DNA from: Atribacterota bacterium
GTDB taxonomy: Bacteria > Atribacterota > Phoenicimicrobiia > Phoenicimicrobiales > Stramentimicrobiaceae
Direction: 5' to 3'
Length of the DNA stretch: 64,000 bases
NCBI GenBank assembly: GCA_040767965.1
Contig: JAXGNR010000004.1
Coordinates: 416,001-480,000 of the forward strand
The notes under the pieces are model-generated. The model did no database searches. It had not been told where the DNA came from and was given only the letters and a program-made list of their open reading frames with translations. Positions 9,001 to 57,444 of the stretch are shown piece after piece. The stretch's first letter is position 1, and each line of letters begins with the position of its first letter. The position numbers and the translations under genes are program-made.

Positions 9001-9108
9001 ATCATATGGCATTGACCAAACTATCATACTGAGAAAGCCTGTTTTGATTAAGAACAGGCATATTAAAGAAAACAAAAATATTGTTATTTTATTTTTTGTT
9101 TTAAACAT
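6019..9108 (-). CDS. Omp85/BamA-family outer-membrane protein with N-terminal HEXXH metallopeptidase-like domain and PD40 (TolB-like) beta-propeller
   Basis: N-terminal signal/TM; AHEYTH...WAIEGLA (zincin); PVWSPDGK, PSWSADGE, PAGSPDGK repeats; FPLRGF, SIEYRFP, FFDAGQAW, terminal F (barrel signature). Confidence 0.85.
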   Translation of the reverse strand: MFKTKNKITIFLFSLICLFLIKTGFLSMIVWSMPYDLSLEWQTIESEHFLVIFPGKSPTLQHFEYQEFALTIADIAEETYQKLIPYFGEPYNKNRKTAIILEDFSDSVYGFATVLPHPAIRINLTAPGFKTFDTKFKSWLKILIAHEYTHIAHFDMTSKATSFLRLFLGQIIAPNALQPMWAIEGLAIFYESKLGSGGRLTDNRYDMYLRSDFLEENPIDLKLLKDTYFTSWPGGNIPYIYGQSLVHYIAQEYGEEKLLDISEYFCANPLLGINWSIKKALGINQNDLYKNWEDKKLSQYQEQLENVYSFSEITHSEQITNHQYWADNPIWWQKDNKDKAILLYRVNIPELYPTIRSYNQLNKEESIIINRTTGHGTSYSLSPDNKYLIYSKLQNFKEFYQYYDLFLFNLQNGNQIQLSEGMRIKDPGWHPSKSEYNVVAVINIAGSSNLVLFSLENTFPSLFGGNNKNTDFTSSKNEMLTFEDLLYLTSFNDGTQISQPVWSPDGKKIAFSMWQNGYQDIYILELGTANEIKYLNPIIRDKHIDISPSWSADGEYIYFTSDRSGIFNLYAYQLKEKILFRLTNVTTGAFEPAGSPDGKEIAFIQYHSTGYELHLAETKNLLWKPVSFETQTNTGDGSLYQVNISHKPIQGTVLCIRNKNKEQSPVSYSPWDSLFPTYWIPYFNLTSKDLYLGFSSTAQDYLGYYYLPFKLAKGVFTPSLYYDFHFIQYSQNPNFSISWQGETLLEDGHLQNFFDAKSTNAVFQANLNYQNEGYTSQQDSARYFSGNFTLGFQSHLYNFKNDGNNSDNLSFRKINSFILSYDYNDTEKYQTSVGPEIGSSFSLNYQHANTLLGSDLTFNKLLFDGRKYFPLSESNQSIALRFVAGFATKGLTQKEKFYLGGNSNSTELSSINNSFPLRGFPASTFSGNNILSASIEYRFPIKTVERKIGFDWASIFLERISGSLFFDAGQAWEGKLLQLPSELNAAIGAEINFKFKQAQSNPFIITIGASKPISESAKVRLYFQTGISF
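7110..7220. repeat. REP-like cassette: two direct 34-bp repeats plus one inverted copy
   Basis: TGATACAAAGAACCGTCCCCTGTATTGGTTTGTG at 7140-7173 and 7187-7220 (identical); 7110-7130 is the reverse complement of 7144-7164 with 1 mismatch. Confidence 0.9.
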
Positions 9109-14385: not shown

Positions 14386-14880
14386 ATGAAAATTTGTATT
14401 AAAGCGGGAATTATTTTATTCACTATTTTGCTTGAATTATTATTATCAAATTTTTTAGTTTTGAATACTATTAAACCGGATTTAATATTAATTGTTGTAA
14501 TTTGTATGTCTCTTATTTCAGGACCAGAAGAAGGAACTGCTGTTGGCTTTATTGGAGGAATGCTGAAAGATATTTTTTCTGTACATTATTTAGGTGTTAA
14601 CGCTTTAGTTAAAACAGTAATTGGATATATTGCAGGATTGACAAGAGAAAAAATATTTCCTCAACACCTTATGTGGATAGTGGTGATATCAACTTTTGTG
14701 TTTACGCTGGCAAACAATATGGCAGTTTATTTTATATTAAAAGCATTACATACAGATTATGATTTTTCTAATATTTTACAAAATATTATTTTTTCTCAGG
14801 CAATCCTGAATTGTGTCTTATCTCCTTTTGTTTTTGTGGGGATTAATAAAATATTTACCTATGGTAAACGCTGGAGTTAA
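14386..14880 (+). CDS. mreD: Rod shape-determining protein MreD
   Basis: IKPDLILI, GFIGGMLKDIFS, GVNAL; hydrophobic 164 aa; directly upstream of mrdA. Confidence 0.85.
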   Translation: MKICIKAGIILFTILLELLLSNFLVLNTIKPDLILIVVICMSLISGPEEGTAVGFIGGMLKDIFSVHYLGVNALVKTVIGYIAGLTREKIFPQHLMWIVVISTFVFTLANNMAVYFILKALHTDYDFSNILQNIIFSQAILNCVLSPFVFVGINKIFTYGKRWS

Positions 14881-14886: not shown

Positions 14887-17826
14887 ATGTTTAGTCAAAA
14901 AAATACCAAGACAACCAAAGAGCAAACCAAAAAGAGATTGAACGATTTTTTTGGTCTAATTATAATTTGTTTTATCATCTTGTTGGTTAACCTTTGGTAT
15001 TTACAAATAATTAGGGGGAAAGAATATGAGCAGAGAGCTATTAATAATTGTATTCGATCTTTGGTAGAAGTAGCCCCAAGGGGGGAGCTATATGATCGAC
15101 AGGGGAAATTATTAATAACCAACCGTCCAGCAGTGAATATTTCAGTTATTCCTGCTGAAATTGAAAATTATCACTACTTATCATCAAAAATAGGCCCAAT
15201 TGTAGGTTTAGAAATTGCTGAAATAGATACAAGATTTCAACAACTAAAATCTCGACCATTTCAAGCGCAAACAATCAAGCGAGATTTAGAAAAAGAACAG
15301 ATAGTGGCTATTGAAGAACAAAAATATAAGTTTAAAGGTACAGTATTGACGGTACAACCGGAGAGAAAGTATCTTTATCAGGATTTAGCAGCACATTTGC
15401 TGGGATATGTTAATGAAATAAGTGAAGATGAACTAAAATCATCTACTTTTGGTCATCTTGCAGGTGGAGACATTGTTGGTAAAAGTGGGATTGAAAGATA
15501 TTATGATACTTTCCTTAGGGGAGAAAAGGGAAGCAAAGAAGTGGAAGTTGATGCCCTGGGAAGAGAGATCCTTACCTTGCGTAATATTGAACCTAAGGCA
15601 GGGAACGATTTATACTTAACTATTGACAGCTCTTTACAGCAGTATGCACAAAATTTACTTGCAGGGCAAAAAGGAGCTATTATAGTAAGCGAACTGAAAA
15701 CTGGAAAGATTCTGGTTATGGTAAGCCAACCAACTTTTAATCCTAATTTATTTACCCAGGAAATGTCTTTTACAGAATGGCAAAATATTTCCCAAAGCGA
15801 AGATAATATACTTTGTAATAGAAATATCCAGGGGACTTATCCTCCTGGTTCAGTGTTTAAGTTAATCACTGCTGTTGCAGCTTTAGAAGAAGGCTTGATT
15901 AGTTTAAATGAGAAAATATATTGTTCTGGTTCCCTAAGTTTAGGTGATGTAACTTTTAAATGCTGGAAAGAAGGAGGGCATGGTCATCAGACATTTACTC
16001 AAGCTATAAGTAATTCCTGTAATGTATTTTTTTATACTCTTGGTCAAAGACTGGGAATCGACAAATTAAGTGATTATGCTTCTATGTTCGGTTTGGGTGA
16101 AAAAACGGGCGTTGATATTCCCGGAGAATTGTCAGGATTAGTACCTTCTCAAGAATGGAAAAAAAACACACTGGATCAAGCGTGGTATCCTGGTGATACT
16201 GTAAATTTGTCAATTGGACAAGGTTACTTACTTGCTACTCCTATGCAGATTCATAATATGGCTTGTGCCATTGCAAATGAAGGCATTTCCTATAAGCCAA
16301 TAAATGTTGACAAGATTGTTTCACCTGAAGGAGAAATAATAAAACAGTTTATCCCGGAAATTGCTCGAAAAGTAAATGTGTCATCAGTAACCTTTCAGCA
16401 TGTAAAAGAGGGAATGAGATTGGCAATAAAAGAAGGCACCGGTAAAAATGCCAGATTAGAAGAAATAGAAATTGCCGGTAAAACTGGGACAGCCCAAAAC
16501 CCACAAGGTGAAAACCATGCCTGGTTTGTAGGCTTTGCACCATTTCAAAATTCAGAAATAGGAATAACTATTTTTGTTGAGCATGGAGGAGATGGCAGTC
16601 AAGCTGCTGCACCTCTGGCTGGTAAAATTATAGCTGAGTATTACCGATTAAAAGAAGAAACAAAAGAGGTTAAAATAATGGCCACTAAGCGTTCACATTA
16701 CCTTGAATTGATTCAGGATCCCATTTATCGTTCTTTGCGTTTGTTTAAGCATTTTGATTATAGTATATTATTTGCAGTGCTTGGTTTGTGCTTTATAGGT
16801 ATCCTGATAATCTATAGTACCACTCATGTACAAACTGGTGACCAGGGCTCATTGTCTACTATAAAAAAACAATTATTATATGTTGCTGCAGGTGTCTTTT
16901 GTATGTTTTTGGCGGCAGTTATTGATTATCATGAAATTGAAAAAATTGCTCTACCTATTTATATATTGGCTGTTCTGGCTTTAGTATATGTTATTTTGTT
17001 TGGCAGGGTAACTGCTGGGGCAAGAAGATGGATAGAGTTTGCAGGACATGATTTTCAGCCTACTGAATTTGCTAAAATAGCTTTGATGATTTTTTTAAGC
17101 AGCTTCTTAAGCAGGCAGAAAGGCAAATTATCATACAATGTTTATTTTATTGTTCCTTTTTTTATAACAGGGATAATGATGTTGTTGATTTTTAGACAAC
17201 CTGACTTGGGCAGTTCAATGGTTTTCCTGGCAATATTATTGAGTATGCTTTTTGTAGCAGGGATTAAATGGAAGCATATCCTAATGATGCTACTAATCAC
17301 AATTGCCTCTTTTCCGGTGCTGTGGTCTTTTTTAAAAGATTACCAGAAAGACAGAATACTGTTGTTTCTTAATCCAAATCTAGATCCATTAGGGGCAGGT
17401 TATAACATTATTCAATCAAAAGTTGCCATTGGTTCTGGTGGCTTATTTGGACAGGGATTATTTAGCGGCATTCAAAGTCAATTAAAATTTTTGCCAGCAC
17501 AGCATACTGATTTTGTGTTTTCCGTGGTAGGAGAAGAATTAGGTTTTTTTGGTGCTTCAATATTGTTAATTTTATTTTTCTTTCTTCTATGGAGAGGTAT
17601 CAAAATTGCTCAGGAATCTCCTGATTTATTAGGAACATTTTTAGCAACTGGAGTTGTTTCTTTTTATTTTTTTCATATATTTATTAATATTGGAATGGCT
17701 ATGGGATTAATGCCGGCTACCGGACTTCCTCTTTCTTTTATAAGCTATGGAGGTACATTTATGCTGACTAATTTTTTAGCTATGGGATTACTAATGAATG
17801 TTCATTTAAGGAGCATTTATTCATAA
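14887..17826 (+). CDS. mrdA: Penicillin-binding protein 2 (MrdA, aa 1-~590) continuous in frame with RodA (from Met598)
   Basis: LWYLQI, APRGELYDR, YPPGSVFK (SxxK), SCN, KTGTAQ; then RodA motifs GARRWI, QPTEFAK, QPDLGS, GYNIIQSKVAIGSGG, PAQHTDFVFS, GLPLSFISYGG; no stop between them. Confidence 0.9.
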   Translation: MFSQKNTKTTKEQTKKRLNDFFGLIIICFIILLVNLWYLQIIRGKEYEQRAINNCIRSLVEVAPRGELYDRQGKLLITNRPAVNISVIPAEIENYHYLSSKIGPIVGLEIAEIDTRFQQLKSRPFQAQTIKRDLEKEQIVAIEEQKYKFKGTVLTVQPERKYLYQDLAAHLLGYVNEISEDELKSSTFGHLAGGDIVGKSGIERYYDTFLRGEKGSKEVEVDALGREILTLRNIEPKAGNDLYLTIDSSLQQYAQNLLAGQKGAIIVSELKTGKILVMVSQPTFNPNLFTQEMSFTEWQNISQSEDNILCNRNIQGTYPPGSVFKLITAVAALEEGLISLNEKIYCSGSLSLGDVTFKCWKEGGHGHQTFTQAISNSCNVFFYTLGQRLGIDKLSDYASMFGLGEKTGVDIPGELSGLVPSQEWKKNTLDQAWYPGDTVNLSIGQGYLLATPMQIHNMACAIANEGISYKPINVDKIVSPEGEIIKQFIPEIARKVNVSSVTFQHVKEGMRLAIKEGTGKNARLEEIEIAGKTGTAQNPQGENHAWFVGFAPFQNSEIGITIFVEHGGDGSQAAAPLAGKIIAEYYRLKEETKEVKIMATKRSHYLELIQDPIYRSLRLFKHFDYSILFAVLGLCFIGILIIYSTTHVQTGDQGSLSTIKKQLLYVAAGVFCMFLAAVIDYHEIEKIALPIYILAVLALVYVILFGRVTAGARRWIEFAGHDFQPTEFAKIALMIFLSSFLSRQKGKLSYNVYFIVPFFITGIMMLLIFRQPDLGSSMVFLAILLSMLFVAGIKWKHILMMLLITIASFPVLWSFLKDYQKDRILLFLNPNLDPLGAGYNIIQSKVAIGSGGLFGQGLFSGIQSQLKFLPAQHTDFVFSVVGEELGFFGASILLILFFFLLWRGIKIAQESPDLLGTFLATGVVSFYFFHIFINIGMAMGLMPATGLPLSFISYGGTFMLTNFLAMGLLMNVHLRSIYS
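16678..17826 (+). CDS. rodA: RodA (SEDS glycosyltransferase), probable internal start
   Basis: In-frame ATG at 16678 preceded by GAGGT (16666-16670); complete SEDS motifs downstream. Confidence 0.75.
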   Translation: MATKRSHYLELIQDPIYRSLRLFKHFDYSILFAVLGLCFIGILIIYSTTHVQTGDQGSLSTIKKQLLYVAAGVFCMFLAAVIDYHEIEKIALPIYILAVLALVYVILFGRVTAGARRWIEFAGHDFQPTEFAKIALMIFLSSFLSRQKGKLSYNVYFIVPFFITGIMMLLIFRQPDLGSSMVFLAILLSMLFVAGIKWKHILMMLLITIASFPVLWSFLKDYQKDRILLFLNPNLDPLGAGYNIIQSKVAIGSGGLFGQGLFSGIQSQLKFLPAQHTDFVFSVVGEELGFFGASILLILFFFLLWRGIKIAQESPDLLGTFLATGVVSFYFFHIFINIGMAMGLMPATGLPLSFISYGGTFMLTNFLAMGLLMNVHLRSIYS

Positions 17827-22952: not shown

Positions 22953-22985
22953 ACCCTGGGTTTTGTAAAAAACTCAGGGTTTTTT
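22953..22985 (+). terminator. Rho-independent terminator after rpmA
   Basis: ACCCTGGGTTTT-gtaa-AAAACTCAGGGT followed by a T run. Confidence 0.75.
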
Positions 22986-23047: not shown

Positions 23048-24343
23048 ATGTTTTCTGATAAAGTAATTATATTTGTAAAAGCTGGCTCTGGTGGTGATGG
23101 TGCAGTAAGTTTTAGGAGGGAACGCCATATTCCTAAAGGTGGCCCTGACGGTGGAGATGGTGGTAAAGGTGGAGATGTATATATAGAAGTTGATTCTCAT
23201 ACCAAGACTTTAATTCAATTATATCGCAAGCCTCATTGCAAAGCTGAACATGGAGATCATGGTAAAGGTCAGAAGAAAAACGGAAAAGATGGACAGGATT
23301 TGATTATTAAAGTCCCTGCAGGGACTGTTGTTGAGGATTTAGAAAAAGAAAGGATTATTGCAGATCTGGCAGAACCTGAAAGAAAAATTTTGATTGCAAA
23401 AGGAGGGTCCGGGGGAAAAGGAAATTATCGTTTTAGAAACTCCCAAAGACAAACTCCTAGATTTGCCCAAAAAGGAGAAAAAGGGGAAGAGTTAAAACTA
23501 AAATTAAATTTGAAATTAATTGCCGATGCGGGGCTAGTAGGTTTTCCGAATGCCGGTAAATCTACTCTTTTGTCTCGTGTTTCAGCCGCTAAACCTAAAA
23601 TAGCTGATTATCCTTTTACAACAATGGAACCATATTTGGGGGTAGTTAAAGTTGATGAGGAGAATTCTTTTGTACTTGCTGATATTCCAGGAATAATAGA
23701 AGGTGCTCATCAGGGAGTTGGTCTTGGAACACGATTTCTAAAGCATATTGAAAGAACCAAAGTTTTGATTCATATTATTGATGGAGCAAAAAGTATTAAT
23801 CAGGGTATAGATGATATTTATAATGATTATCTTATTATCGAGAATGAATTAAAAAACTATGCCCAAATTTTAGAAAAAAAAGAAAAAATAATTGCAGTAA
23901 ATAAATGCGATTTACCAGAAGTACAGTCTCGGAAGAAAGAAATCAAAGAATATTTTTTAAAAAAAGGAATTCCGGTTTTTTTTATATCTGCAGTTAGCGG
24001 AGAAGGGATCTCTGACTTAATTTACCAGGTGTTTAACAGAATATCTTTTTTTGATTCCCAAGAAAAGGAAGAACAAAGCTCACAGCAACAAGAAAAAGAA
24101 GAAATTAGCTATTATAAATATGAGCCAGATTTTACTGTAAAAAAACAAGGAGGCTTGTTTATTGTGGAAGGCAGTAAAATTGTCAAACTGGTTAATCAAT
24201 TTGATCTAGAGAACCCGCAAGCCCTGGAATATTTCCAAAAAAAATTTAAAAGTAGCGGAGTTGAAAAGGTATTACTCAAGGAAGGAATTACTGATGGAGA
24301 TAAAGTGAAAATTGGAGAGAAGACTTTTTACTTTTATTCATAG
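23048..24343 (+). CDS. obgE: GTPase ObgE/CgtA
   Basis: GGDGAVSFRRE, GGPDGGDGG, GFPNAGKST, DYPFTT, DIPG, NKCD; C-terminal OCT-like domain. Confidence 0.97.
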   Translation: MFSDKVIIFVKAGSGGDGAVSFRRERHIPKGGPDGGDGGKGGDVYIEVDSHTKTLIQLYRKPHCKAEHGDHGKGQKKNGKDGQDLIIKVPAGTVVEDLEKERIIADLAEPERKILIAKGGSGGKGNYRFRNSQRQTPRFAQKGEKGEELKLKLNLKLIADAGLVGFPNAGKSTLLSRVSAAKPKIADYPFTTMEPYLGVVKVDEENSFVLADIPGIIEGAHQGVGLGTRFLKHIERTKVLIHIIDGAKSINQGIDDIYNDYLIIENELKNYAQILEKKEKIIAVNKCDLPEVQSRKKEIKEYFLKKGIPVFFISAVSGEGISDLIYQVFNRISFFDSQEKEEQSSQQQEKEEISYYKYEPDFTVKKQGGLFIVEGSKIVKLVNQFDLENPQALEYFQKKFKSSGVEKVLLKEGITDGDKVKIGEKTFYFYS

Positions 24344-24415
24344 ATACTGTATAATATTATGTTAAATAAATTTCTTTTAATTTTATAAGATGATTTAAAA
24401 TATAAAGGGAAAAAA

Positions 24416-27400
24416 ATGATTTGCTGGTTTAAAATATTAAAAAAATGCAAAAATAAAATATCACAAATTCTTTTGCTATCTATTATTTTCGTTATGTTTC
24501 TTTTTCTAGAAGTAAGCAGTTTTAACTTAGATAGCCCAAGAGTAGCAGTCTATTATTTTCATAACCGATCGGAAAATCTTGAATTGAATTGGCTAGAAGA
24601 GGATCTGCCTTTTTCTATTGGTCAATCATTATCCAAGATTCAAGAAATAGATTTTGTTAATTTATCTGAAGCTGATACTGTTGCTGATTACCACTTATAT
24701 AAAAATATGATTCCTAAGAAAGATATCAGAATGTTTGGTCAATTGGCAAATTTACTACAGGTAGACTTTCTTTTTTCTGGCAATTTTACCCAGGAGAGCA
24801 GTAATCAAATCGGATTGGATTTATTGATGTATTTAACATCAACAAATCATTTGGTTGAGTTTCGCAGAATGTCAGCTCAATTAAATAATTTAGCTAATCT
24901 GGAAGAACGAATAATTAATATAATTTTGCAAGAAGCAGATGTTGAAATGAACAGTACTTCTTTAGAAAATGTCATTGAAGAAGGATTGGATAACAGGAAT
25001 AGTAAATCTATTGATTTAAGTGAGAATATTTCCAGTGAAATATCTATTCCTGTGCAACCAGAACCAAAAGAAGAGCCTCTTTATTCTGAACCTGTATTAC
25101 GAGACCAAGCAATACAAAACAATTCATTAGTATTAGAGTATTACAAAAAAGCGCTGGATTTAAAAGAAAGAGCTATTCAGGAATATGGAGGTGTCGATTA
25201 CCCCAGCAAGCCTTTATGGAATGAGGCGATTCAAAATGCCACCAAAACAGTAGAACTAGATCCTGATTTTGCCGATGGATACTATTTATTATACGAGATT
25301 TATCAAAAAACTAAATGGATTGCCAGAGAAATAGAAAGCTTGGAGCATTATATTGCTACAATAAGGCGAACGAATAAACAGGTTAGCCTGCAAGAATTTT
25401 CAACCTTACTTACCAGACTTGCTCATTTAAAATTCAATGCTGGGGATACCACAACAGCAGTTAGTTATTTAGAAGAGGCAATTTCTTACAATCCAAATAA
25501 TATCGAAACAAGAAATTATTTAATGGAGATATATTACAATACAGGACAAACAACAAAAGCCTTACAACAAGCAGAAGAGATTAAGAGAATTAAACCAGAC
25601 AGTATTGAATTAGACTGGTATTCTAGAAGAACACAAAGAATAAATCTTTACGGAAGGGAAGCATTTGAAAATTACGAGAACGGTTATAATCTATATATTG
25701 CAAAGAAATTTCAGGAATCAATCAGTTATTTAGAGCAAGCTATACGCATGGCACCAGCTTTCAAGGATGCGCATTATTACCTTGGATTGTCTTATTATCA
25801 TTCCAACAACTTGATATCTGCTATAAAACACTGGGAAGAAGCAGTAAAACTAGATCCTTTTGATACCCATTCCATAATTTACCTTAACAAGGCTGTTGAA
25901 GAAAAAGAATATGGAAGAGAAGCAGTTTGGAGTTTCAATGAAGGCTACGAACACTATATTGCAGGAGAATATCAAGAAGCACTATCTCTTTTCCGAAAAA
26001 CTGTTAATATAAATCCAAATTATGAAAAAGCAAGAATGCTTTTAATGCGGACTTATTATCATTTGGACCAGATGGACGAATATCTGGCAGAAAGAAAAAG
26101 AATTACTGAAAATGTTAATTTTACCGGTGATCTGGAAAGGGAGTTATATCAAGTGGCTTATGACTTCTTCTCCATAAAGGAGTACACTGTAGCCTTAGAA
26201 AAATTGCAGGAATCCTTAGATATAAATCCAGATTATTTAGAATCAAGATTTTTGATAGCAGAAACATGGTACCAGTTAGGAAACTATAGTGAGGCAAATA
26301 TTCATTACCAATATATAATATCCAATTACAGTCAAAGCGAATACTATGCAGATTCCTTGTTAGGCAGTGGCTGGTGTTACTTTTTATCAGAAGATTACCG
26401 CCAGGCTGAAAATTGTTTGAAACTGTTTATTGATAATTTTCCTCAAAGTTCTTTTTACCAGGAAGCATTATACAAACTTGGAAGAACTTATTTTATGCAG
26501 GAGGATTATCATAAAACAATAGAGACTTTAGAGAGTTTGATTAACAGAGAATTTGAACAACAAAAATATTCTATTTCTGAAATAAATTTCTTTATCGGAC
26601 AATCTTATTTTTGGCTGGAAAATTATGGAAAAGCGAAAGAGATTTTATTGTCAATTATAGAAAATGATCCTTATTTTGAAATGATGAACGAAACAAAATA
26701 TTTTTACAGTTTTTCGTTGTTTAGAGAAGGTCGATATCAAGAAGCTATTTCTTTGCTGGAAGAGTTATCTATTCATGCTGACATTCAACTTCAGCAAGAA
26801 GTAAATTATCTTTTGGGAAGAGCATTGCTTGAAATAAAAGACTATGATAAAGTAATTAGGATTAATCGTTCTCTATTAGAAAATGATCTAAATGAAAGCA
26901 TGTTAGCAAATGTTTTGTTTGATTTGGGAATAGCATATTCCAGAAATAAAAATGATGCTGAAGCAGTGAAATACTTCCAGAGAGTATTAGAAGAAGTGCC
27001 GTTGGGAGAGCTGGCAAGGCTAAGTAAGATTGAACTGGCACAGAGTTATTTTTATTTAGAAAGATATGTTGACTCCATAAATGTCCTGAAAGACATTTCT
27101 TCTAAAGAAGCTTTGGAATTGAAAATTGATGCTGCCAGAGCTATGGGCGAGACCGATCTTTTGTTATTATCATTACAGGAGTATGAACAAAAATACCCTG
27201 ATGGCTCTATTTCTGCTGATGGATATTATTCAATAGCAATTTCTCAGTACAATGAAGGAAAATACCAGGAAGCTTATGATACTTTTAAAATATTAGAAGG
27301 TATGGAAATTATTGATGAAATGGAGCAAAAAGTAACTTACTGGCAAGGTTTAAGTCAATATAAACTAAAAAACTATTCTCAAGCAAAAGATTATTTTCAA

Positions 27401-28144
27401 TTGATAGACTATTATACGGGAAACGAAACTGCTATTAGCGCTTTATATATGCTGGCCGAGACATATTATCAAGAAGGAAATTATACTGAAGCAATTAAAT
27501 ATTATCAAGAATTTTTAGAAAACTTTAAAACGAATTCTTTAGCAGAAACTGCCTATTATGGACTGGCCTGGAGCTATTTAAATAACCGTGATTACCCAAA
27601 AAGCATAGAAACATTAGAAATACTGATTGAAAATTACCCGGATAGTCAGTTAGTCGAAGAAGGTTATTTTTTATTAGGTAAAATCCATTTTCTTGCTGGT
27701 GAAAATGATAATTCCCGGACTAATTTAATAGATTTTGTAAATAATTATCCAAACAGTATCTTTAAGGAAGAATCAATTTATATAATTGCACAAATCTATC
27801 TAGAAGAACAGAATTGGATTGATAGTATATTATATTTTGAAAACCTGAAAAATGATTACCCTGAAAGCAATTATTTATCAGGCTCATTATATGGACTTTG
27901 TTTGAGCTATTATAAAATGGAGGAATATTCCAAAGCTCTTGTCAATGGTGAACAATATTTAAACTACTTTGATGTTGGTTCACTCAAATGTGATGTTTTA
28001 TACATTATTGCAATCTGTCAAGAAGAGCTGGGAAATATTGCAGCGGCAGTTGAAAGATATGAACAGATAATATCTGAGTGTCCAAATAGTGCTTATATTG
28101 AAAGTGCAAAGGGGCAAATTGAATTCCTTGTTCCAGGACAGTGA
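24416..28144 (+). CDS. Large exported TPR-repeat protein (CpoB/BamD-like TPRs) with N-terminal TolB-N/CsgG-like segment
   Basis: N-terminal hydrophobic helix; RVAVYYFHNRS...LNWLEEDLP; many TPRs, including xxNYPxS-type repeats. Confidence 0.8.
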   Translation: MICWFKILKKCKNKISQILLLSIIFVMFLFLEVSSFNLDSPRVAVYYFHNRSENLELNWLEEDLPFSIGQSLSKIQEIDFVNLSEADTVADYHLYKNMIPKKDIRMFGQLANLLQVDFLFSGNFTQESSNQIGLDLLMYLTSTNHLVEFRRMSAQLNNLANLEERIINIILQEADVEMNSTSLENVIEEGLDNRNSKSIDLSENISSEISIPVQPEPKEEPLYSEPVLRDQAIQNNSLVLEYYKKALDLKERAIQEYGGVDYPSKPLWNEAIQNATKTVELDPDFADGYYLLYEIYQKTKWIAREIESLEHYIATIRRTNKQVSLQEFSTLLTRLAHLKFNAGDTTTAVSYLEEAISYNPNNIETRNYLMEIYYNTGQTTKALQQAEEIKRIKPDSIELDWYSRRTQRINLYGREAFENYENGYNLYIAKKFQESISYLEQAIRMAPAFKDAHYYLGLSYYHSNNLISAIKHWEEAVKLDPFDTHSIIYLNKAVEEKEYGREAVWSFNEGYEHYIAGEYQEALSLFRKTVNINPNYEKARMLLMRTYYHLDQMDEYLAERKRITENVNFTGDLERELYQVAYDFFSIKEYTVALEKLQESLDINPDYLESRFLIAETWYQLGNYSEANIHYQYIISNYSQSEYYADSLLGSGWCYFLSEDYRQAENCLKLFIDNFPQSSFYQEALYKLGRTYFMQEDYHKTIETLESLINREFEQQKYSISEINFFIGQSYFWLENYGKAKEILLSIIENDPYFEMMNETKYFYSFSLFREGRYQEAISLLEELSIHADIQLQQEVNYLLGRALLEIKDYDKVIRINRSLLENDLNESMLANVLFDLGIAYSRNKNDAEAVKYFQRVLEEVPLGELARLSKIELAQSYFYLERYVDSINVLKDISSKEALELKIDAARAMGETDLLLLSLQEYEQKYPDGSISADGYYSIAISQYNEGKYQEAYDTFKILEGMEIIDEMEQKVTYWQGLSQYKLKNYSQAKDYFQLIDYYTGNETAISALYMLAETYYQEGNYTEAIKYYQEFLENFKTNSLAETAYYGLAWSYLNNRDYPKSIETLEILIENYPDSQLVEEGYFLLGKIHFLAGENDNSRTNLIDFVNNYPNSIFKEESIYIIAQIYLEEQNWIDSILYFENLKNDYPESNYLSGSLYGLCLSYYKMEEYSKALVNGEQYLNYFDVGSLKCDVLYIIAICQEELGNIAAAVERYEQIISECPNSAYIESAKGQIEFLVPGQ

Positions 28145-28211
28145 TTGAACAAAAGTATTAGAAATGATAAAAATGTATTAGATTTTATGAAATAGAGGAG
28201 GCTACTATTTA

Positions 28212-28889
28212 ATGTTTGAACTTTTTTATAAGGGCGGTTTCTTGATGTATCCTATTTTTTTCTGTTCTTTGCTGGCAATTGCCATTTTTTTCGAAAGGAT
28301 GTTTTACTTAAAAAGTATCAAAACATCAACAAGAAAATTTGGCAACCGTATAGCCGATTTGGTTAGAAAAGGAAACATCAATTTTGCAATCACTGCCTGT
28401 CGAAAGAATTTTACTCCTATATCCCAGATAATTCTGGCAGCTTTAGTGAAACATGGCAGCTCTAGGGATGAAATAAAAGAGGTCATTGAAGATACTGCAA
28501 GACATGAGATTGCAGCTCTGGAGCGGAATATGCCTATTCTGGGAACAATCGGAAATATTACACCTTTGTTAGGACTTTTGGGAACTGTATTTGGAATGAT
28601 TAAATCTTTCCAGGTTATCTCTGTTGTTGGTGTCGGAAACCCGGAAGCTTTAGCAGGAGGCATATCAGAAGCTCTGCTAACCACTGCTTTTGGTCTTTCA
28701 GTGGCAATCCCAACAATTGTAGCTTACAATTATTTATCTAATCGTATTGACAGGCAAGTTAAAGAAATGGAGTCCACTTCTGTAGAAATACTGGAATTAT
28801 TATCAGAGAATAATAATAATTCAAATATCCAATTTAAAGAGGCGCAAGAGGAAGGTGTAAAAATAGATGAAATTTTATCACATCAGTAA
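28212..28889 (+). CDS. MotA/TolQ/ExbB proton channel family protein
   Basis: GGFLMYPI, TPLLGLLGTVFGMIKSF, LAGGISEALLTTAFGLSVAIP. Confidence 0.93.
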   Translation: MFELFYKGGFLMYPIFFCSLLAIAIFFERMFYLKSIKTSTRKFGNRIADLVRKGNINFAITACRKNFTPISQIILAALVKHGSSRDEIKEVIEDTARHEIAALERNMPILGTIGNITPLLGLLGTVFGMIKSFQVISVVGVGNPEALAGGISEALLTTAFGLSVAIPTIVAYNYLSNRIDRQVKEMESTSVEILELLSENNNNSNIQFKEAQEEGVKIDEILSHQ

Positions 28890-29277
28890 AAAAAGACTTG
28901 GTTTTGATTTAACACCTTTGATTGATGTGGTGTTCTTATTGCTAATCTTTTTTATGCTTACTACTACTTTTATTAATATTGAAAGCGGTGTAAAAGTCGA
29001 TTTACCAAGCGGAGATTTTGCTTCAGTAACCGAGAGGCAGAATTTAATAGTTGCCATTACTGAAAATAATGTAATATATCTGAACAACAATATAGTTGAT
29101 CCGAATAATTTAGCTTCCATGATAAGGGAAGAAATTGGCGAAATGACTGATTCTTTGGTTGTTTTGGAAGCAGATCAGAATATTACGCACGGAAAAGTTG
29201 TTCGGGTTATGGATTTGATAAAAAAAGGTGGAGCAGAGAGGATAGCTATTGCTACCCGTCCATCTGAAGGCCAATAG
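28867..29277 (+). CDS. ExbD/TolR biopolymer transporter
   Basis: DLTPLIDVVFLLLIFFM (conserved TM Asp), VDLP, ADQNITHGKVVRVMD. Confidence 0.93.
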   Translation: MKFYHISKKRLGFDLTPLIDVVFLLLIFFMLTTTFINIESGVKVDLPSGDFASVTERQNLIVAITENNVIYLNNNIVDPNNLASMIREEIGEMTDSLVVLEADQNITHGKVVRVMDLIKKGGAERIAIATRPSEGQ

Positions 29278-29339
29278 CAATATTAGTTAAAAAATATATT
29301 AGCAAAATTAGCAATACAAAAATAAGGTGATATTTTAAG

Positions 29340-30827
29340 ATGACTGGATACAGAGCAAAAAGAAGAAAACTACGATCTAAAAGCTATTTAGGCCGTTCCT
29401 TTCTTATTTCTTTAATCATAAATTTTTTGTTTATTTTTTTCTTTAGCAATCTTACTTCTTTTGATTTATTAAAAATGCCAGAAGAGGAAATTATTCTGGT
29501 TACCATGGTTGAATTACCAACATTGCGAGAACCTGTAACGGCAAGACCAGAAATTGAAGCAGAAGAGCCTGTGGCTGAATTAAGCACTATGCCCAGAGTA
29601 GAGCCCGCCCTCCCAGAACCAGCAAGAGAACAGGAAATAGAAACACAGCCAGCAGCAGAAAGCCAGGATGAAATAGCTGAAATTGTCAGTACTCCTCGTG
29701 CTGAAGTCAAAATACCTGAAATAGAAATACCGTCCAGTGAAGAAATGCCAGCAATGCAAGAACAAGCTCCTGCCAGGCAGGATGTTCAAGTTGCATCTGG
29801 ATCACTTGCTCCATCTATTACCAGCAGAAGAGATATCGAAGGAGAAGTGCTAGAACCAGGACAATATGAGATTCAGGCAAGTATGGGACAACCAGGAAGA
29901 GAAAGAATTGAATCAACTTATGGAAACACCGTTACTCCTGGACAAATAAGTAATTTACCAAGAACTATTGAGAAGGAGTCCCCTTTTGGAAACAGGCCAC
30001 TTGCAGTTACTATTGATAATGCAGACGCCGCCCGTCCACAAAGCGGGCTTGATAAAGCGAATATCGTGTATGAAGTATTGGCAGAAGGTGGGATCACCCG
30101 TTTTCTGGCTATTTATGCAGCCCAAGAAGCAGATGTAGTAGGGCCTGTACGTAGTGCCAGACCATATTTTATTACTAAAGCTATGGAGCACAGCGCTATT
30201 TATGTACATGCAGGGGAAAGTCCTGATGCAGCTAGATTTATCAGAGAAGAAAGGATTGATGATATTAATGAACTAGTTCATTATCAGCCATTTTGGAGAT
30301 CTTCTGATCGAAGACCACCTCATAACTTATATGCATCGACTGAACAGTTAAGAGAAGAGGCTAAAAATATAGGTTATCTTGAAATGATAAACAGAGATAG
30401 TTTTCAGTTTGAAGCAGATTCTAATCAGATACTTACCGGAGCTGATATCCAAAGAATTGATATAAGGTATAATGTCAATTACTCAGTAAGATATCAATAT
30501 AATCCAGAAACAAAGAGGTATATTAGATTTATCAATGATATTCCTCATATCGATGCAGAAACAGGAATGCAATTGCAGGCAAAAAATATTATTATCCAGC
30601 ACAGCGAGAAGAAAGTTCTTGACGAAGAAGGTAGGCTCGCTATCGATTTACTTGGAAGAGGAGATGGACTTATTATTTTTAATGGTAAATCAGAAGAAAT
30701 TACCTGGAAAAAGGAAACTTTAACATCCAAGACATATTTTTATAATAAAAATGGTGACCGATTAGCAATACAACCTGGTAATGTCTGGATTCAGATTACT
30801 CATCCAGATACACAGGTTAGATACTAA
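29340..30827 (+). CDS. TonB/TolA-like membrane anchor plus Pro/Glu-rich linker fused to DUF3048 (YerB-like) domain
   Basis: Basic N-terminus, single TM with S24-x3-N28, P/E-rich spacer; from aa 219 RPLAVTIDN..ARPQSGL..A.IVYEVLAEGGITRF, GPVRSAR, PHNLY. Confidence 0.8.
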   Translation: MTGYRAKRRKLRSKSYLGRSFLISLIINFLFIFFFSNLTSFDLLKMPEEEIILVTMVELPTLREPVTARPEIEAEEPVAELSTMPRVEPALPEPAREQEIETQPAAESQDEIAEIVSTPRAEVKIPEIEIPSSEEMPAMQEQAPARQDVQVASGSLAPSITSRRDIEGEVLEPGQYEIQASMGQPGRERIESTYGNTVTPGQISNLPRTIEKESPFGNRPLAVTIDNADAARPQSGLDKANIVYEVLAEGGITRFLAIYAAQEADVVGPVRSARPYFITKAMEHSAIYVHAGESPDAARFIREERIDDINELVHYQPFWRSSDRRPPHNLYASTEQLREEAKNIGYLEMINRDSFQFEADSNQILTGADIQRIDIRYNVNYSVRYQYNPETKRYIRFINDIPHIDAETGMQLQAKNIIIQHSEKKVLDEEGRLAIDLLGRGDGLIIFNGKSEEITWKKETLTSKTYFYNKNGDRLAIQPGNVWIQITHPDTQVRY

Positions 30828-30891
30828 TGAATCAAAGTCAGCAAAGCTAGAAAATATTTTCTTTAATGATCAGTTATTTACAGGATTATTT

Positions 30892-31797
30892 ATGGATCAG
30901 CAACATGAACTTATCGAGAGTTTTTTAGATTATTTATATTTAGAAAGAGGATTAGCATATAATACAATTGCATCTTATCGTTATGATCTGGATAAGTTTC
31001 ATAATTTTGTTATTAAACAAAAAAGGATAACTTTTAAAAAAGTTAATAGAGAAATATTAACAGAATACTATCAATACCTTATCAATAAAAAATTAGAAAT
31101 AAGTTCTATTTTTCGTAATTTAGTAGCCTTGAAGATGTTTTTCAGATATCTTTTAGTAGAAGAAATTATAGGAAAAGACCTCTCCCATTTTATTGAATTT
31201 CCCCGAATGGGGAAAAAGTTACCAGAAGCTCTTAGTATTGAAGATGTTAACAAACTTTTGGCAGAGGAAAATTTTAAAGGCAAGTTAGGGAAAAGAGATA
31301 AGGCAATACTGGAATTACTTTATGCTACAGGGATGCGCGTTTCAGAATTAATTAATCTAAAAAGGAATGATTTAAATCTTGAACATCGATTATTAAAATG
31401 TACAGGTAAGGGCAATAAAGAAAGATGGATTCCAATTACTGACAAAGCCCATGCGGCTTTATTTGACTATATAGCTTATAACAGACCAAAAATACTAAAG
31501 AAAGCCGATCTGGAAATATTATTCTTGAATAGTCGTGGAGGTCCTATTACAAGGCAAGGAGTTTTTCTATTGATAAAAAATTATTCTAAAATGTCTGGCA
31601 TCAAAATAAATGTTACTCCGCATACCTTAAGACATACTCTGGCTACTCACTTAATTGAAAACGGTGCTGACTTAAGATCAGTTCAAGAGATACTGGGCCA
31701 TGCAGATATCTCTACTACACAAATATATACTCATGTTAGCCGAAAATGGGTTAAGGATGAATATTTTAAGGCATTTCCAAGAGCATATGAAGAGTAG
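30892..31797 (+). CDS. xerD: Site-specific tyrosine recombinase XerD
   Basis: ERGLAYNTIASY, RDKAILELLYATGMRVSEL, GKGNKER, HTLRH, LGHADISTTQIYTHV; likely ATG at 30892. Confidence 0.9.
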   Translation: MDQQHELIESFLDYLYLERGLAYNTIASYRYDLDKFHNFVIKQKRITFKKVNREILTEYYQYLINKKLEISSIFRNLVALKMFFRYLLVEEIIGKDLSHFIEFPRMGKKLPEALSIEDVNKLLAEENFKGKLGKRDKAILELLYATGMRVSELINLKRNDLNLEHRLLKCTGKGNKERWIPITDKAHAALFDYIAYNRPKILKKADLEILFLNSRGGPITRQGVFLLIKNYSKMSGIKINVTPHTLRHTLATHLIENGADLRSVQEILGHADISTTQIYTHVSRKWVKDEYFKAFPRAYEE

Positions 31798-36695: not shown

Positions 36696-38597
36696 ATGAA
36701 TAAAATAGTTAACCACAAGATTACTGAAAAGAAAAAGTTATTTCTATTTTGTGGCTTATTTCATATTTTTTTGTTGATTTTATTTATAAATGGGATAATA
36801 ATTATTTGTGCAAAACCGCATAACATAATACCTGTTTCAGAGATATTACCAGGAATGACCGGAATCGGTAAAACAGTATTTTCTGGACTGGAAATAGAAG
36901 AATTTGAAGTAACTGTAATTGATATTATCGCTGGAACAGAAATCAATGAAGATTATATATTGGTACAGTTAAGCGGCAATAATATTGATAAAAATGGCGG
37001 TATTTCTGCCGGGATGAGTGGATCTCCTGTTTATTTCGGGAAGAGATTAGCAGGTGCGGTTTCTCATGCCTGGGAAATGAGTGAGCATAATTTATGTCTA
37101 ATAACGCCCATTGAAAATATGTTGCCAATGCTGGAAGGCTTTAAACAACAAAAAACGGAAACAGATACTGATTATGAATTTCAAAAAGATATTTTAATTC
37201 CATTTGATGACAATTTCCCAAAAGAAATATTTGAAGATTATATTTCAAAAAAAGATTTAACAGGATATATTAGCAAAAAATTGTGGGCAAATTTTAAACC
37301 TATAAAAACCCCTTTAATAATAACCGGATTTACTGGTCGTTCGCAAGATATTTTTAAGCAATATTTTTCAAAACAAAATCTTAATTTAATTAATAATAAT
37401 CAGATATTTCCGGCAATGGAAAATATAAAATCTTTAGAATTTGAAGCTGTTGATCCACAGCCGGGATCTGCAATTGGTGTACAACTTTCTACAGGTGATG
37501 CCAGCGTTTTAGCCATTGGTACAGCAACTTATTGCTATGATAATCTGGTTTTAGCCTTAGGTCATCCCTTTATGCATACAGGTGATGCCTCCTTTCTGTT
37601 TTCTGCTGTTTACATTTATCATAGTTTTCCAAATATTATTATGCCCTTTAAAATAGGGGCTCCCTATCAACTGCTTGGTGAAGTTGTCCAGGATCGCAGT
37701 TCTGGAATTCTAGCTCGTGTTGGGTATTATCCTAAAATAGTTTCCTGCAAAATAAGCATTACCGATTTAGACCGCGAAAAATACAAGGAGAGTGGTGCAA
37801 AAATAATACCTCAAGGTAATATAGTACAAAGTATTACTAATGCCTTAATAATTCAATCCATCGACAGTGCAATAGACAGAATAGGATCAGGAACTGCTAC
37901 AGTGAAAATAGAATTAAAAACCAGTGTTCCAAACAGTTTATTTATCCATAAAAATATCTTCTTCAGTAAAGATGATATTGCAACACAATGCATAAACGAT
38001 TTTAATGAAATTATAGACTTAGTGGTCAACAATTATTGTGAAATTATTTCCTTAAGCGAAATCAAGGTTCATGTTGATATTACAGAAGAAAATCAAAGTG
38101 CGATCTTGAAGGAAATGGAAATAGATAAAAAAGAATATTCACCTGGCGAAAAAATTGAAATTAAATTAAAACTGAAACCTTTTCGTAGACCGGAAGAGGA
38201 GAAGATAGTAGAACTGAATATAAGTGAAGATTTAGATGAAGGAGAATTTGTATTAATTGTAAAAGGTGGGTTTTCTGATGAGAATTCTTTAGAGCAGATG
38301 ATATCTCAGAATAATGATAAATATTTGTTAAATGGATGGGAAGAGATTAAGAATGATTTTGAAAAAAGAGTTAAAAATAACCAGATTATTGCAGAATTAA
38401 TTCGCTTGAACAAACATGAAAGAAAAGACTTGAATTGGGAAGATAATTCTGAGCCAGAAGAAAAGGAAATTAAAGAATTATTAGATACAAATTATATAGT
38501 AGAAGGGCAACATGAGATTTATCTAAGTGTTATAAATTATAATAATAAAAATATAGAAAACAGTGATAAAGAAGGTAGGAGTAATAATAATGAATAA
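36696..38597 (+). CDS. SpoIVB-like peptidase S55 domain protein, membrane-anchored/exported
   Basis: PGMTGIGKTVFSG, GISAGMSGSPVY, LAGAVS, LGHPF. Confidence 0.85.
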   Translation: MNKIVNHKITEKKKLFLFCGLFHIFLLILFINGIIIICAKPHNIIPVSEILPGMTGIGKTVFSGLEIEEFEVTVIDIIAGTEINEDYILVQLSGNNIDKNGGISAGMSGSPVYFGKRLAGAVSHAWEMSEHNLCLITPIENMLPMLEGFKQQKTETDTDYEFQKDILIPFDDNFPKEIFEDYISKKDLTGYISKKLWANFKPIKTPLIITGFTGRSQDIFKQYFSKQNLNLINNNQIFPAMENIKSLEFEAVDPQPGSAIGVQLSTGDASVLAIGTATYCYDNLVLALGHPFMHTGDASFLFSAVYIYHSFPNIIMPFKIGAPYQLLGEVVQDRSSGILARVGYYPKIVSCKISITDLDREKYKESGAKIIPQGNIVQSITNALIIQSIDSAIDRIGSGTATVKIELKTSVPNSLFIHKNIFFSKDDIATQCINDFNEIIDLVVNNYCEIISLSEIKVHVDITEENQSAILKEMEIDKKEYSPGEKIEIKLKLKPFRRPEEEKIVELNISEDLDEGEFVLIVKGGFSDENSLEQMISQNNDKYLLNGWEEIKNDFEKRVKNNQIIAELIRLNKHERKDLNWEDNSEPEEKEIKELLDTNYIVEGQHEIYLSVINYNNKNIENSDKEGRSNNNE

Positions 38598-49710: not shown

Positions 49711-49814
49711 GTTTTATGGTTTTATGATTGTATATTATTAATTTGAAGAATGGTAAAAAGTTTTAATCTATTTTGAACTAGATATTTTGAAATAATTGAG
49801 GGAAGGATAAAAAA

Positions 49815-52295: not shown

Positions 52296-52338
52296 TTTTA
52301 AAACAGAATAATACTTTCATTTGGGGAGCAATTAAAAA

Positions 52339-53709: not shown

Positions 53710-53744
53710 TAATCTATTTTTAACTGAAAATAATAATTGTCTTT

Positions 53745-57339: not shown

Positions 57340-57349
57340 GTAGACTGTT

Positions 57350-57425: not shown

Positions 57426-57444
57426 TAAAGTGAAGCATAAATAT

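Follow-up and report, generated by a model that had tools for sequence, protein, structure and literature searches.

In the TonB-ExbB-ExbD system of E. coli (PMC12215075, PMC10907165), motor subunits of the MotA_ExbB and ExbD families, with their transmembrane (TM) Asp, are joined by a transducer that has a single TM helix with a Ser-x3-His motif, a D-box strand and a Pro-rich linker of Glu-Pro and Lys-Pro blocks. Tol-Pal proper (TolQ-TolR-TolA-TolB-Pal-CpoB) is reported only in Gracilicutes according to Williams-Jones et al. (2025, PMC12204202), an account that also describes transducers whose head, a vWA domain, is unrelated to TonB_C. These are encoded in the order TPR, tolQ-like, tolR-like (a heterologous pair) and transducer, the last combining an SHLS-type TM motif with a disordered linker that holds a motor box, and they are described there from Proteobacteria, PVC, Bacteroidetes and Rhodothermaeota. 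B. subtilis YerB (PDB 2psb) and related DUF3048 proteins are ~330-390 aa long, carry a short anchor or signal at the N-terminus and have no motor genes nearby; our literature search on DUF3048/YerB function returned incidental mentions only.

Here, we describe a four-gene block from Atribacterota, analysed within a 64-kb stretch of DNA (the window), that follows the gene order of the vWA-headed systems, with a TM helix whose Ser-x3-Asn resembles the SHLS-type motif, a disordered linker that contains a motor-box-like strand and a head unrelated to TonB_C. It differs from the systems described in PMC12204202, whose main text does not mention 'DUF', in its YerB/DUF3048 head, in having one tolR-like gene, in carrying Asn for the conserved His, in its phylum and in the great length (1242 aa) and the TolB-N/LpoB-like domain of its TPR protein. 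With E. coli TonB the block shares the motor families, the TM Asp, a Ser-x3-(His/Asn) helix, a D-box-type strand at about the same spacing and a Pro-rich linker, which is here acidic and of Glu/Pro type.

Results

Organisation and conservation of the locus

The block (24416-30827, + strand) consists of four co-oriented genes encoding a 1242-aa TPR protein (P0001, 24416-28144), ExbB (P0002, 28212-28889, 225 aa), ExbD (P0003, 28867-29277, 136 aa) and a 495-aa protein with a YerB/DUF3048 head (P0004, 29340-30827). Gaps of 67 and 62 nt separate the genes, exbB and exbD overlap by 23 nt, and a ribosome-binding site (AAGGTGA) lies 5' of the P0004 start codon. No convincing terminator was found within the four genes; a terminator-like hairpin is located after rpmA (22953-22980). 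Just upstream of the TPR gene, a 10/12 sigma-70-like match (24327..24355, +) is a possible operon promoter, as a consensus match only, with 45 such sites observed against 37.8 expected. The block is flanked by obg (23048-24343) upstream and a XerD-like recombinase gene (30781-31797) downstream, in a neighbourhood that also includes mreD, mreB and a gene for a PBP2-RodA fusion.

The original prediction, made from the sequence, had read this stretch as four tightly packed, co-oriented genes, which the ORF positions, strand and Pfam families bear out. It had also stated that no TonB-dependent receptor, TolB or Pal gene adjoins. Among window ORFs of at least 100 aa and two shorter ones there is no match to TonB_C, a TonB-dependent receptor or OmpA/Pal, and tolB and pal genes are absent from the block and from window ORFs of at least 100 aa. 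The statement therefore stands for the block, with the addition of a 1029-aa TolB-propeller and Omp85-barrel gene 15 kb upstream (6019-9108, - strand).

The complete TPR-exbB-exbD-DUF3048 block is present in 8/8 Atribacterota loci, with P0001 orthologues of 1145-1239 aa upstream of exbB in every case, and it is kept at identities as low as 38% for the transducer, 40% for ExbB and 46% for ExbD. The proposed check of DUF3048-exbBD synteny in relatives thus came out positive, within one phylum and with the giant TPR gene included. ExbB or ExbD was found near DUF3048 in 0/72 loci from other phyla, where the DUF3048 proteins are ~350 aa long and lack a stalk. In locus L008, the upstream flank is different, without obg adjacency, and lgt is inserted downstream, while the block is intact. 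Position between obg and xerD had been offered as an argument for a core role; both flanks are present here, but with a different upstream flank in L008 the argument carries little weight. Among 161 DUF3048 cores placed in one tree, all 25 stalked forms and one fragment form a single clade (SH-aLRT 96): the stalk-DUF3048 fusion arose once.

Motor subunits

P0002 belongs to MotA_ExbB (PF01618; Pfam E 5e-36, 123.7 bits against a cutoff of 22.9) and has the TM2/TM3 motifs and TM3 Pro of that family, and P0003 belongs to ExbD (PF02472; E 1.1e-29, 103.5 bits against 25.4) and has the essential TM Asp. The motor motifs that had been reported as intact (GLLGT, EALLTT and the TM Asp in TPLID) were all found. 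In ExbB, GLLGT occupies residues 121-125 and EALLTT residues 153-158, with P167 in TM3; across nine sequences most positions of the two motifs are invariant, E153 and L156 each differing in one sequence, and G121, L122, G124, T125, A154, L155, T158 and P167 are the same in all 9 of the sequences aligned, E. coli TolQ and ExbB among them. The ExbD Asp, D20, is invariant in 9/9 Atribacterota sequences and aligns with the Asp of E. coli ExbD/TolR.

Against NCBIfam, the best model for P0002 was TolQ (TIGR02796, 116.4 bits, cutoff 221), followed by ExbB (TIGR02797, 83.2 bits, cutoff 206.2), and the best for P0003 was TolR (TIGR02801, 77.6 bits, cutoff 127.3), followed by ExbD (TIGR02803, 55.7 bits, cutoff 152.95), so that none of these equivalog cutoffs was reached.

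At the presumptive docking surface, S19 in TM1 of P0002 pairs with S28 of E. coli TolQ and S34 of ExbB, a residue that touches the transducer Ser/His in cryo-EM structures (PMC12215075). The equivalent of E. coli ExbB Trp38, four residues after S19, is Ile in P0002, and the Trp that packs on TonB His20 in E. coli is replaced by an aliphatic residue in 7/7 Atribacterota ExbB, so the interface in the membrane may be a different one or may not exist. E. coli ExbD captures the D-box through a strand at residues 130-134 (PMC10907165); its counterpart in the P0003 alignment is the C-terminal edge strand IAIAT (126-130).

The stalk of P0004

P0004 is built of a basic tail, a single TM helix (aa 19-38; 29394..29453, +), an acidic Glu/Pro-rich linker (aa 45-215, 171 aa; 29472..29984, +) and the YerB/DUF3048 domain, in agreement with the TonB architecture attributed to the fourth gene in the original prediction. 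The AlphaFold2 (AF2) helix contains four invariant residues, S20, S24, N28 and F35, and carries S24-x3-N28 where TonB/TolA has S-x3-H, the His/Asn switch falling exactly on the TonB His20 position. Asn is reportedly able to replace His20 in E. coli TonB. Conservation of this motif held when checked in the 149 stored members of the family in which the core begins no earlier than aa 150: S-x3-N occurs in 118/149 and S-x3-H in 5/149, the latter being deeper relatives with the motif at the same place (lineages including P0128 and P0135). The remaining 26 comprise ~10 N-truncated fragments of the same family (4 of them inferred) and ~16 proteins whose signal-peptide or TM architecture is different. 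Across four sub-lineages the anchor keeps a polar residue, Asn or His, and the motif was found in 1/111 short-form DUF3048 controls.

Profile comparison with hhalign set the helix against the SHLS region of TolA (11-37) in register, pairing S24 with S18 and N28 with H22 (E 0.0041). The probability of this alignment was 8% and that of a second one for the P0004 N-terminus 6%, both low and both over short segments. Neither the Leu nor the Ser of SHLS is retained, an invariant F35 being found instead. P0004 had no match to a TonB N-terminal family (Pfam E<=10; NCBIfam E<=1), and the atlas scored TonB_N-type clusters at 0.76-0.83, under its own lead threshold.

Shortly after the helix lies a strand, IILVTMVE (aa 51-58; 29490..29513, +), flanked by P47 and P60, that resembles a D-box or motor box and had gone unnoticed in the original prediction. 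As defined in PMC10907165, the D-box is a Pro-flanked hydrophobic-polar-hydrophobic-polar-hydrophobic-hydrophobic-polar strand just after the TM helix. ILVTMVE (aa 52-58) fits this pattern, starting at +28 from the motif Ser against +29 for ISVTMVT of E. coli TonB, and its VTMV is identical to TonB 47-50. When any residue is allowed at position 2, the pattern occurs at +27 to +31 in 81/124 family members and once in the 18,669 aa of remaining linker; 43/124 miss the strict pattern, and position 2 is usually hydrophobic, not hydrophilic.

The linker contains 18.7% Glu and 12.3% Pro, has a net charge of -21, and was modelled without secondary structure at pLDDT 40-63, as an extended linker of the TonB/TolA kind. 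It contains several conserved islands, and the length of the whole protein is near constant (mostly 493-499 aa among full-length matches), which makes it unlike a mere spacer.

The head of P0004

The two-lobed globular head (aa 216-495; 29985..30824, +) matches DUF3048 (PF11258; aa 214-346, E 1e-47, 162.5 bits) and DUF3048_C (PF17479; aa 373-484, E 3.3e-30, 105.2 bits), each against a cutoff of 25. These were the only Pfam domains in P0004 at E<=0.01, TonB_C (PF03544) being absent; there was no match to TolA domain III in Pfam or NCBIfam, and no Pfam match to a vWA domain. The AF2 model, at pLDDT >95, is related to YerB (2psb) both by sequence (E 2.7e-46, aa 217-490) and by fold (Foldseek TMt 0.88, E 2.6e-29), and Foldseek returned no fold relative of the head other than YerB and no likeness to TonB_C. 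All residues invariant in 148 family sequences, E245, R271, S272, R274, R396, W456 and G480, are kept. Both Pfam domains, the 2psb fold and these residues make the head a clear member of the YerB/DUF3048 family, and Pfam and Foldseek agree with the earlier reading that the fourth gene ends in DUF3048 and not in TonB_C or TolA domain III. In appearance, the invariant polar pocket is closer to an enzyme or ligand site than to a force-bearing adaptor.

The giant TPR protein

P0001 (24416..28144, +) is an exported protein with a signal peptide, an N-terminal domain and ~1000 aa of TPRs, including CpoB/YbgF-type repeats, and it matches many Pfam TPR families. AXA-like cleavage sites, together with an alignment that shows no conserved lipobox Cys, suggest that the signal peptide is cleaved. 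The N-terminal alpha/beta domain (aa 40-175; 24533..24940, +), missing from the original prediction, has the TolB-N-terminal/LpoB/PelC/GNA1162 fold. It was modelled at pLDDT >90 over aa 41-170, and the PDB matches found with Foldseek were 4hrv (TMt 0.58), LpoB (4q6l/4q6z, TMt 0.55-0.56), PelC and TolB N-domains (E 1e-4 to 4e-3, prob 1.00), with an atlas lead of 0.93; it has no Pfam match at E<=10. The CpoB model TIGR02795 scored 207.7 bits against a cutoff of 90.1, summed over 8 repeat stretches in 1242 aa, and 31 other NCBIfam families also match, TPR models being promiscuous. The architecture differs from that of CpoB/YbgF, a small periplasmic protein or lipoprotein with a coiled coil and one TPR module.

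Discussion

We consider it likely that the block forms an operon, conserved in Atribacterota, for a Ton/Tol-type envelope device powered by the proton-motive force, in which P0004 is the transducer and a YerB head replaces the C-terminal domain of TonB/TolA. ExbB and ExbD would form the usual 5:2 inner-membrane motor, with the S24-x3-N28 helix of P0004 docking on ExbB TM1 and ILVTMVE, just outside the membrane, captured by the periplasmic ExbD dimer in the manner of the TonB D-box. The head, standing where TonB and TolA have their C-terminal domain, would be held away from the membrane by the long acidic linker, and the motor may pull, move or switch it while it is engaged with a target. The giant TPR protein is a co-inherited partner that probably acts in the periplasm as a scaffold or a regulator. 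What the data show is the gene content, the identity of the domains, synteny inside the phylum, conserved motifs and one origin of the fusion; physical coupling, the direction of the force, the target and the physiological role are inferred. A canonical TonB encoded outside the 64-kb window might also use the motor.

Within this reading, the device might, as the original prediction proposed, serve cell division as an analogue of Tol-Pal, stabilising or invaginating the outer membrane and coordinating septal wall synthesis, with the TPR protein in CpoB/TolB-like roles and DUF3048 in a wall-engaging role like that of TolA domain III or Pal. We regard this as possible though rather doubtful. The motor subunits fit TolQ/TolR better than ExbB/ExbD models (116 vs 83 and 77.6 vs 55.7 bits), and the TPR protein passes TIGR02795 and begins with a TolB-N/LpoB-type fold; mreD, the PBP2-RodA fusion, mreB and xerD lie nearby, and restriction of Tol-Pal proper to Gracilicutes leaves that function open in Atribacterota. 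Yet every TolQ/TolR score is under its equivalog cutoff, TolA domain III, a TolB propeller gene and a Pal/OmpA-like gene are all lacking from the block, and CpoB-like and TolB-N-like parts are joined in one protein whose TPR matches extend to 32 NCBIfam families. The neighbourhood is, moreover, a housekeeping stretch in which the obg flank is not conserved.

It is improbable that P0004 is a passive anchor, a tethered YerB-like protein on a long spacer that shares its operon through regulation or descent while the motor serves another partner. Tethering is usual for DUF3048 proteins, 111/128 short forms having a hydrophobic N-terminal segment, and long low-complexity linkers arose independently in lineages without motor genes (L041, L075, P0215, P0245); the weak measures of N-terminal homology and the missing ExbB Trp point the same way. 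However, an in-anchor Asn or His is conserved over four sub-lineages, against 1/111 controls, the D-box-like strand is position-specific, linker length and islands are conserved, and the block is retained where its flanks have changed. More improbable still is that P0004 is the working TonB of the lineage, its head engaging outer-membrane transporters for nutrient import. The gene does sit after exbB-exbD, where tonB often is, and earlier work cited in PMC12204202 is said there to have detected TonB in Atribacteria, but the 64-kb window holds no TonB-dependent receptor, the fold of the head is that of YerB and unlike TonB_C, and the partner inherited along with it resembles TPR/TolB-N proteins instead of a receptor. 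The head family is also spread through single-membrane Bacillota and Patescibacteria, which lack such receptors.

For the YerB-headed transducer that we favour, the vWA precedent for the gene order indicates a new head on a known scheme and not a new kind of machine; the novelty claimed in the original prediction thus holds for the YerB head, the scheme itself having been published for vWA-headed transducers (PMC12204202). Since the polar pocket is intact and the family is otherwise short-anchored and extracytoplasmic in single-membrane bacteria, the target is expected to be common to both envelope types, and we infer a component at the level of the cell wall or lipid carrier, not an outer-membrane transporter. 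Hints of a link between DUF3048 and the cell wall, which speak for the division reading, come from other genomes: a SEDS gene lies two genes upstream of DUF3048 in 4 loci, among the Patescibacteria-type loci listed, in Clostridia and Halanaerobium DUF3048 directly follows dgkA or a dgkA-PAP2 fusion, and fusions of DUF3048 to a beta-lactamase-family domain also occur.

Organisation of the four-gene block

The block comprises four ORFs in the same orientation (24416–30827), flanked, according to Pfam, by obg and a gene for a XerD-like recombinase. The leading gene (24416–28144, + strand) encodes P0001, a 1242-aa protein matching TPR families in Pfam, and is followed by exbB (P0002; 28212–28889, +; 225 aa; MotA_ExbB, E = 5e-36), exbD (P0003; 28867–29277, +; 136 aa; ExbD, E = 1.1e-29) and the gene of P0004 (29340–30827, +), a 495-aa protein in which Pfam detects DUF3048 (aa 214–346, E = 1e-47) and DUF3048_C (aa 373–484, E = 3.3e-30) and assigns no further domain. 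Gaps of 67 and 62 nt and a 23-nt overlap of exbB and exbD separate or join the genes. The original prediction had described a run of four packed, co-oriented genes of this kind between obg and xerD, and every testable particular of that description was borne out. A promoter-like site matching 10 of 12 consensus positions immediately precedes the TPR gene, a terminator-like hairpin is located 5′ of obg, a search for terminators inside the block gave none that was convincing, and the start of P0004 is preceded by a good ribosome-binding site.

Atribacterota are a deep-branching lineage with an unusual envelope, whose periplasm measures 7 nm (PMC7736352). Atribacter laminatus is reported to have an envelope of the Gram-negative type in which a space of 7.0 nm separates the outer from the middle layer, with a 2.2-nm layer inside this space and an additional inner membrane (PMC7736352). 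The GC content of the present sequence is ~31%, and the best 120 listed homologues of P0004 that have a source name are all from Atribacterota, Caldatribacteriota or an unclassified ‘bacterium’ or metagenome.

P0004 has a TonB-like transmembrane motif and a D-box-like strand

P0004 is probably a motor-coupled transducer. The AF2 model consists of a single transmembrane (TM) helix (aa 19–38), a stretch without predicted structure (aa 40–215, pLDDT 40–63) and a confident globular head (pLDDT >95). The linker, with its 171 residues, contains 18.7% Glu and 12.3% Pro, has a net charge of −21 and includes conserved islands. The TM residues S20, S24, N28 and F35 do not vary among 19 Atribacterota sequences. 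Conservation of an S-x3-N/H motif in this helix had been set as a test of the original prediction. Among the stored DUF3048 proteins, 149 have a core that begins no earlier than aa 150, and of these S-x3-N occurs in 118 and S-x3-H in five (P0128, P0273, P0274, P0135 and P0288), versus 1 of 111 hydrophobic N-terminal segments in short DUF3048 controls. The other 26 proteins, which have neither form, are N-truncated fragments or signal-peptide architectures.

Past the TM helix, P0004 carries a segment resembling the D-box of E. coli TonB (residues 43–54), a proline-flanked stretch with the pattern hydrophobic-polar-hydrophobic-polar-hydrophobic-hydrophobic-polar, which an ExbD dimer captures via strand recruitment (PMC10907165). 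In E. coli TonB (taken from NC_000913.3), ISVTMVT begins 29 residues past the motif Ser; in P0004, ILVTMVE lies between P47 and P60 and begins 28 residues past it. If any residue is allowed at position 2, 81 of the 124 family members carry such a pattern between +27 and +31, and the other 18,669 aa of linker contain it once. Our assignment of the D-box rests on this spacing and pattern rather than on hhalign, which placed the TM region in register with TolA 11–37 (S24 with S18, N28 with H22) in a weak match (E = 0.0041, probability 8%) and, in a weak alignment to TonB (probability 6%), covered only an ‘ELP’ segment and not the D-box. No TonB N-terminal model matched P0004, Pfam gave nothing for aa 1–214 at E ≤ 10, and in a language-model atlas the best match of aa 1–130 (0.88) was unnamed, with TonB N-terminal clusters reaching only 0.76–0.83. 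The head of P0004 tested negative for both TonB and TolA, and the protein thus belongs to neither family.

The motor side of the interface

Asn can reportedly replace His20 of E. coli TonB functionally, according to the title of one study. In cryo-EM structures from E. coli, S16/H20 of TonB touch S34/W38 of ExbB, and S18/H22 of TolA touch S28/W32 of TolQ, with these ExbB and TolQ residues in turn contacting a TM3 proline (PMC12215075). Since BLASTP of P0002 against TolQ left TM1 uncovered, we used MAFFT to align seven ExbB sequences from Atribacterota with TolQ and ExbB of E. coli. All nine sequences share the Ser (S19 in P0002) and the TM3 Pro (P167), and the position of the E. coli Trp is occupied by Ile, Met or Leu in all seven from Atribacterota. 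The His-to-Asn change in the transducer is thus accompanied by a Trp-to-aliphatic change in ExbB. Within this one lineage, the pairing could reflect co-adaptation of a single interface or be the sign of a differing one, and it lends itself directly to testing the signal-relay network that was proposed on the basis of cryo-EM (PMC12215075).

The block is conserved as a unit in Atribacterota and the stalked form arose once

An alignment of nine stalked proteins of the family served to scan genomes, one per species. This gave 599 confirmed relatives, and we retained the best 80 loci. The best eight of these are Atribacterota MAGs. Searching all locus ORFs with P0002 and P0003 by phmmer located ExbB and ExbD immediately upstream of the DUF3048 gene in 8/8 Atribacterota loci, and ExbB/ExbD in 0/72 of the remaining loci, which belong to Bacillota, Patescibacteria, one Actinomycetota MAG and unclassified sources. 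An ORF of 1145–1239 aa lies upstream of exbB in each of the eight Atribacterota loci. L008, the most divergent of them (identities: transducer 38%, ExbB 40%, ExbD 46%), has HtrA, methylase and ABC transporter genes upstream, replacing obg, and lgt (prolipoprotein diacylglyceryl transferase; L008 11470–12240) between the DUF3048 gene and xerD. The four genes themselves are intact there despite the changed flanks, so that the block holds together as a unit; with flanks that differ in this way, the earlier argument for a core role from the position between obg and xerD is weak.

Stalked DUF3048 proteins have one origin. We inferred a maximum-likelihood phylogeny from 161 DUF3048 cores (quick IQ-TREE search, SH-aLRT support). 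In it, one clade with a support of 96 contains all 25 stalked proteins together with one N-truncated fragment, and within this clade there are four sub-lineages, two His-bearing and two Asn-bearing.

Two further candidates for TonB-like stalks, P0245 and P0200, had been caught by a loose pattern and were rejected as signal-peptide forms placed elsewhere in the tree. Along with P0215 and the ORFs at L041 8972–10909 and L075 9395–11362, they represent a second, unrelated long-linker DUF3048 architecture, in which a signal peptide and a helical N-domain are followed by 150–300 aa of Pro/Ala/Lys-rich linker and then DUF3048. Genes of this type follow CNNM-DUF502 genes, precede era or a HEAT-repeat gene and have no motor genes in their vicinity.

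The head is a YerB domain with a conserved residue set

The head of P0004 is a bona fide YerB domain, matching B. subtilis YerB (PDB 2psb) in sequence (E = 2.7e-46) and in fold (TMt 0.88); no other fold relative was found in the PDB, the next E-value being 0.037. To our knowledge, the DUF3048 family has one structural-genomics structure and no known function. Across 148 sequences, E245, R271, S272, R274, R396, W456 and G480 are invariant and N227, R232, P233, Q234, E249, H290, S294, R320, H328, N329 and Y394 nearly so. P0004 retains every one of these residues, which look like a catalytic or ligand pocket. The family is large, with 7,545 representative clusters at E ≤ 1e-3, and the best 150 of these are mostly 330–390 aa long with the domain starting at aa 50–100.

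Outside Atribacterota, where we scanned 218 of 270 neighbour ORFs, DUF3048 genes occur in housekeeping contexts. In Clostridia and Halanaerobium, the gene follows ybeY, dgkA (or a fusion of dgkA and PAP2) or both, with a CNNM gene often intervening, and precedes cdd-era; in Paenibacillus and Brevibacillus, it adjoins yerC-pcrB or PhoU-PHO4; and in four Patescibacteria-type loci (L051, L066, L072 and L073), FtsW/RodA and rplY (L25) are directly upstream. In P0308 and P0155 (locus L014 366–2419), DUF3048 is joined to a class-C beta-lactamase-family domain (PF00144). These contexts and fusions give soft hints of a link to the wall or a lipid carrier. Full-text literature searches returned incidental mentions of DUF3048 and, among the papers listed, nothing relevant on YerB. 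In loci related to the four Patescibacteria-type ones above (L033, L035, L049, L067 and L077, from Patescibacteria-type and unclassified MAGs), DUF3048 genes form tandem pairs, and P0170 and P0209 have repeated N-terminal domains that appear PEGA-like by eye.

The giant TPR protein

P0001 orthologues begin with a hydrophobic N-terminal signal and a conserved domain of ~130 aa, followed by ~1000 aa of TPRs. The signal suggests a cleaved signal peptide and not a lipoprotein, because AXA-like sites are present and a conserved Cys is not. Modelled with pLDDT >90, the N-terminal domain matches the folds of GNA1162, the LpoB C-domain, PelC, TolB N-terminal domains, FlgT and CsgG (E = 1e-4 to 4e-3; probability mostly 1.00, range 0.82–1.00; TMt up to 0.58), in agreement with its lead in the language-model atlas; Pfam at E ≤ 10 gave nothing for aa 1–260. 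The TPR part exceeds the CpoB/YbgF model TIGR02795 (207.7 versus 90.1 bits, in 8 stretches) and also matches 31 further TPR families; ‘CpoB-like’, as the protein had been called, is therefore a fair description of repeat type and makes no claim of membership.

Possible roles of the YerB-headed transducer

Two outputs of Ton/Tol-class 5:2 motors are known, the import of nutrients and the stabilisation of the outer membrane. The block had been proposed as a Tol-Pal analogue. It is not a Tol-Pal system, because no TolB or Pal gene lies in the block and TolQ/TolR scores are sub-threshold. Tol-Pal has not been reported from Atribacterota. A Tol-like role of the block in division is rather doubtful. 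Less likely still is a reading in which the proton motor would mechanically work the YerB head, whose invariant pocket looks enzyme-like. The device would then serve in the periplasm as an enzyme or wall-binding module that the motor drives or gates, and not as a plug-puller or lipoprotein mobiliser, with the giant TolB-N/LpoB/CpoB-like TPR protein linking it to the synthesis of the wall. If true, the large YerB family would gain its first functional handle, and Ton/Tol-class motors a third type of output.

For the motor-coupled transducer itself, the closest parallel is the vWA-headed class proposed in 2025, in which a TM helix bearing the SHLS motif and a disordered linker that contains a motor box precede the vWA domain (PMC12204202). 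The present cluster shares this scheme but differs in its head, which is YerB/DUF3048; the string ‘DUF’ is absent from the main text of that paper, and we found no other literature on Atribacter with ExbB, TolQ, or TonB and outer membrane. A second, unrelated head on the chassis of TM helix, D-box and linker would show that this chassis is modular, and the block gives DUF3048 a concrete, testable context.

Other genes in the window

Directly 3′ of mreD (14386–14880), a 979-aa ORF (14887–17826, +) fuses a class-B PBP (PBP_dimer and Transpeptidase) to a RodA/FtsW-type SEDS polymerase. A 1029-aa protein (6019–9108, −) combines PD40/TolB-propeller repeats (TIGR02800, 92.6 bits, below cutoff) with an Omp85/BamA-like barrel at the C terminus and a weak match to Peptidase_MA_2, resembling the ‘OMP-TolB-like’ proteins (PMC12204202). 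Its gene is the sole large one on the minus strand of the window. After mreB, a 633-aa ORF (36696–38597, +) has a weak match to the SpoIVB peptidase S55 (E = 2.9e-8); Atribacterota are not known to sporulate. Finally, the region 48108–63998 has a Bacillota-like gene order, mcsA-mcsB-clpC-radA-PIN(yacL-like)-cysS-sigH-like ... tuf ... nusG-rplK-rplA-rplJ-rplL.
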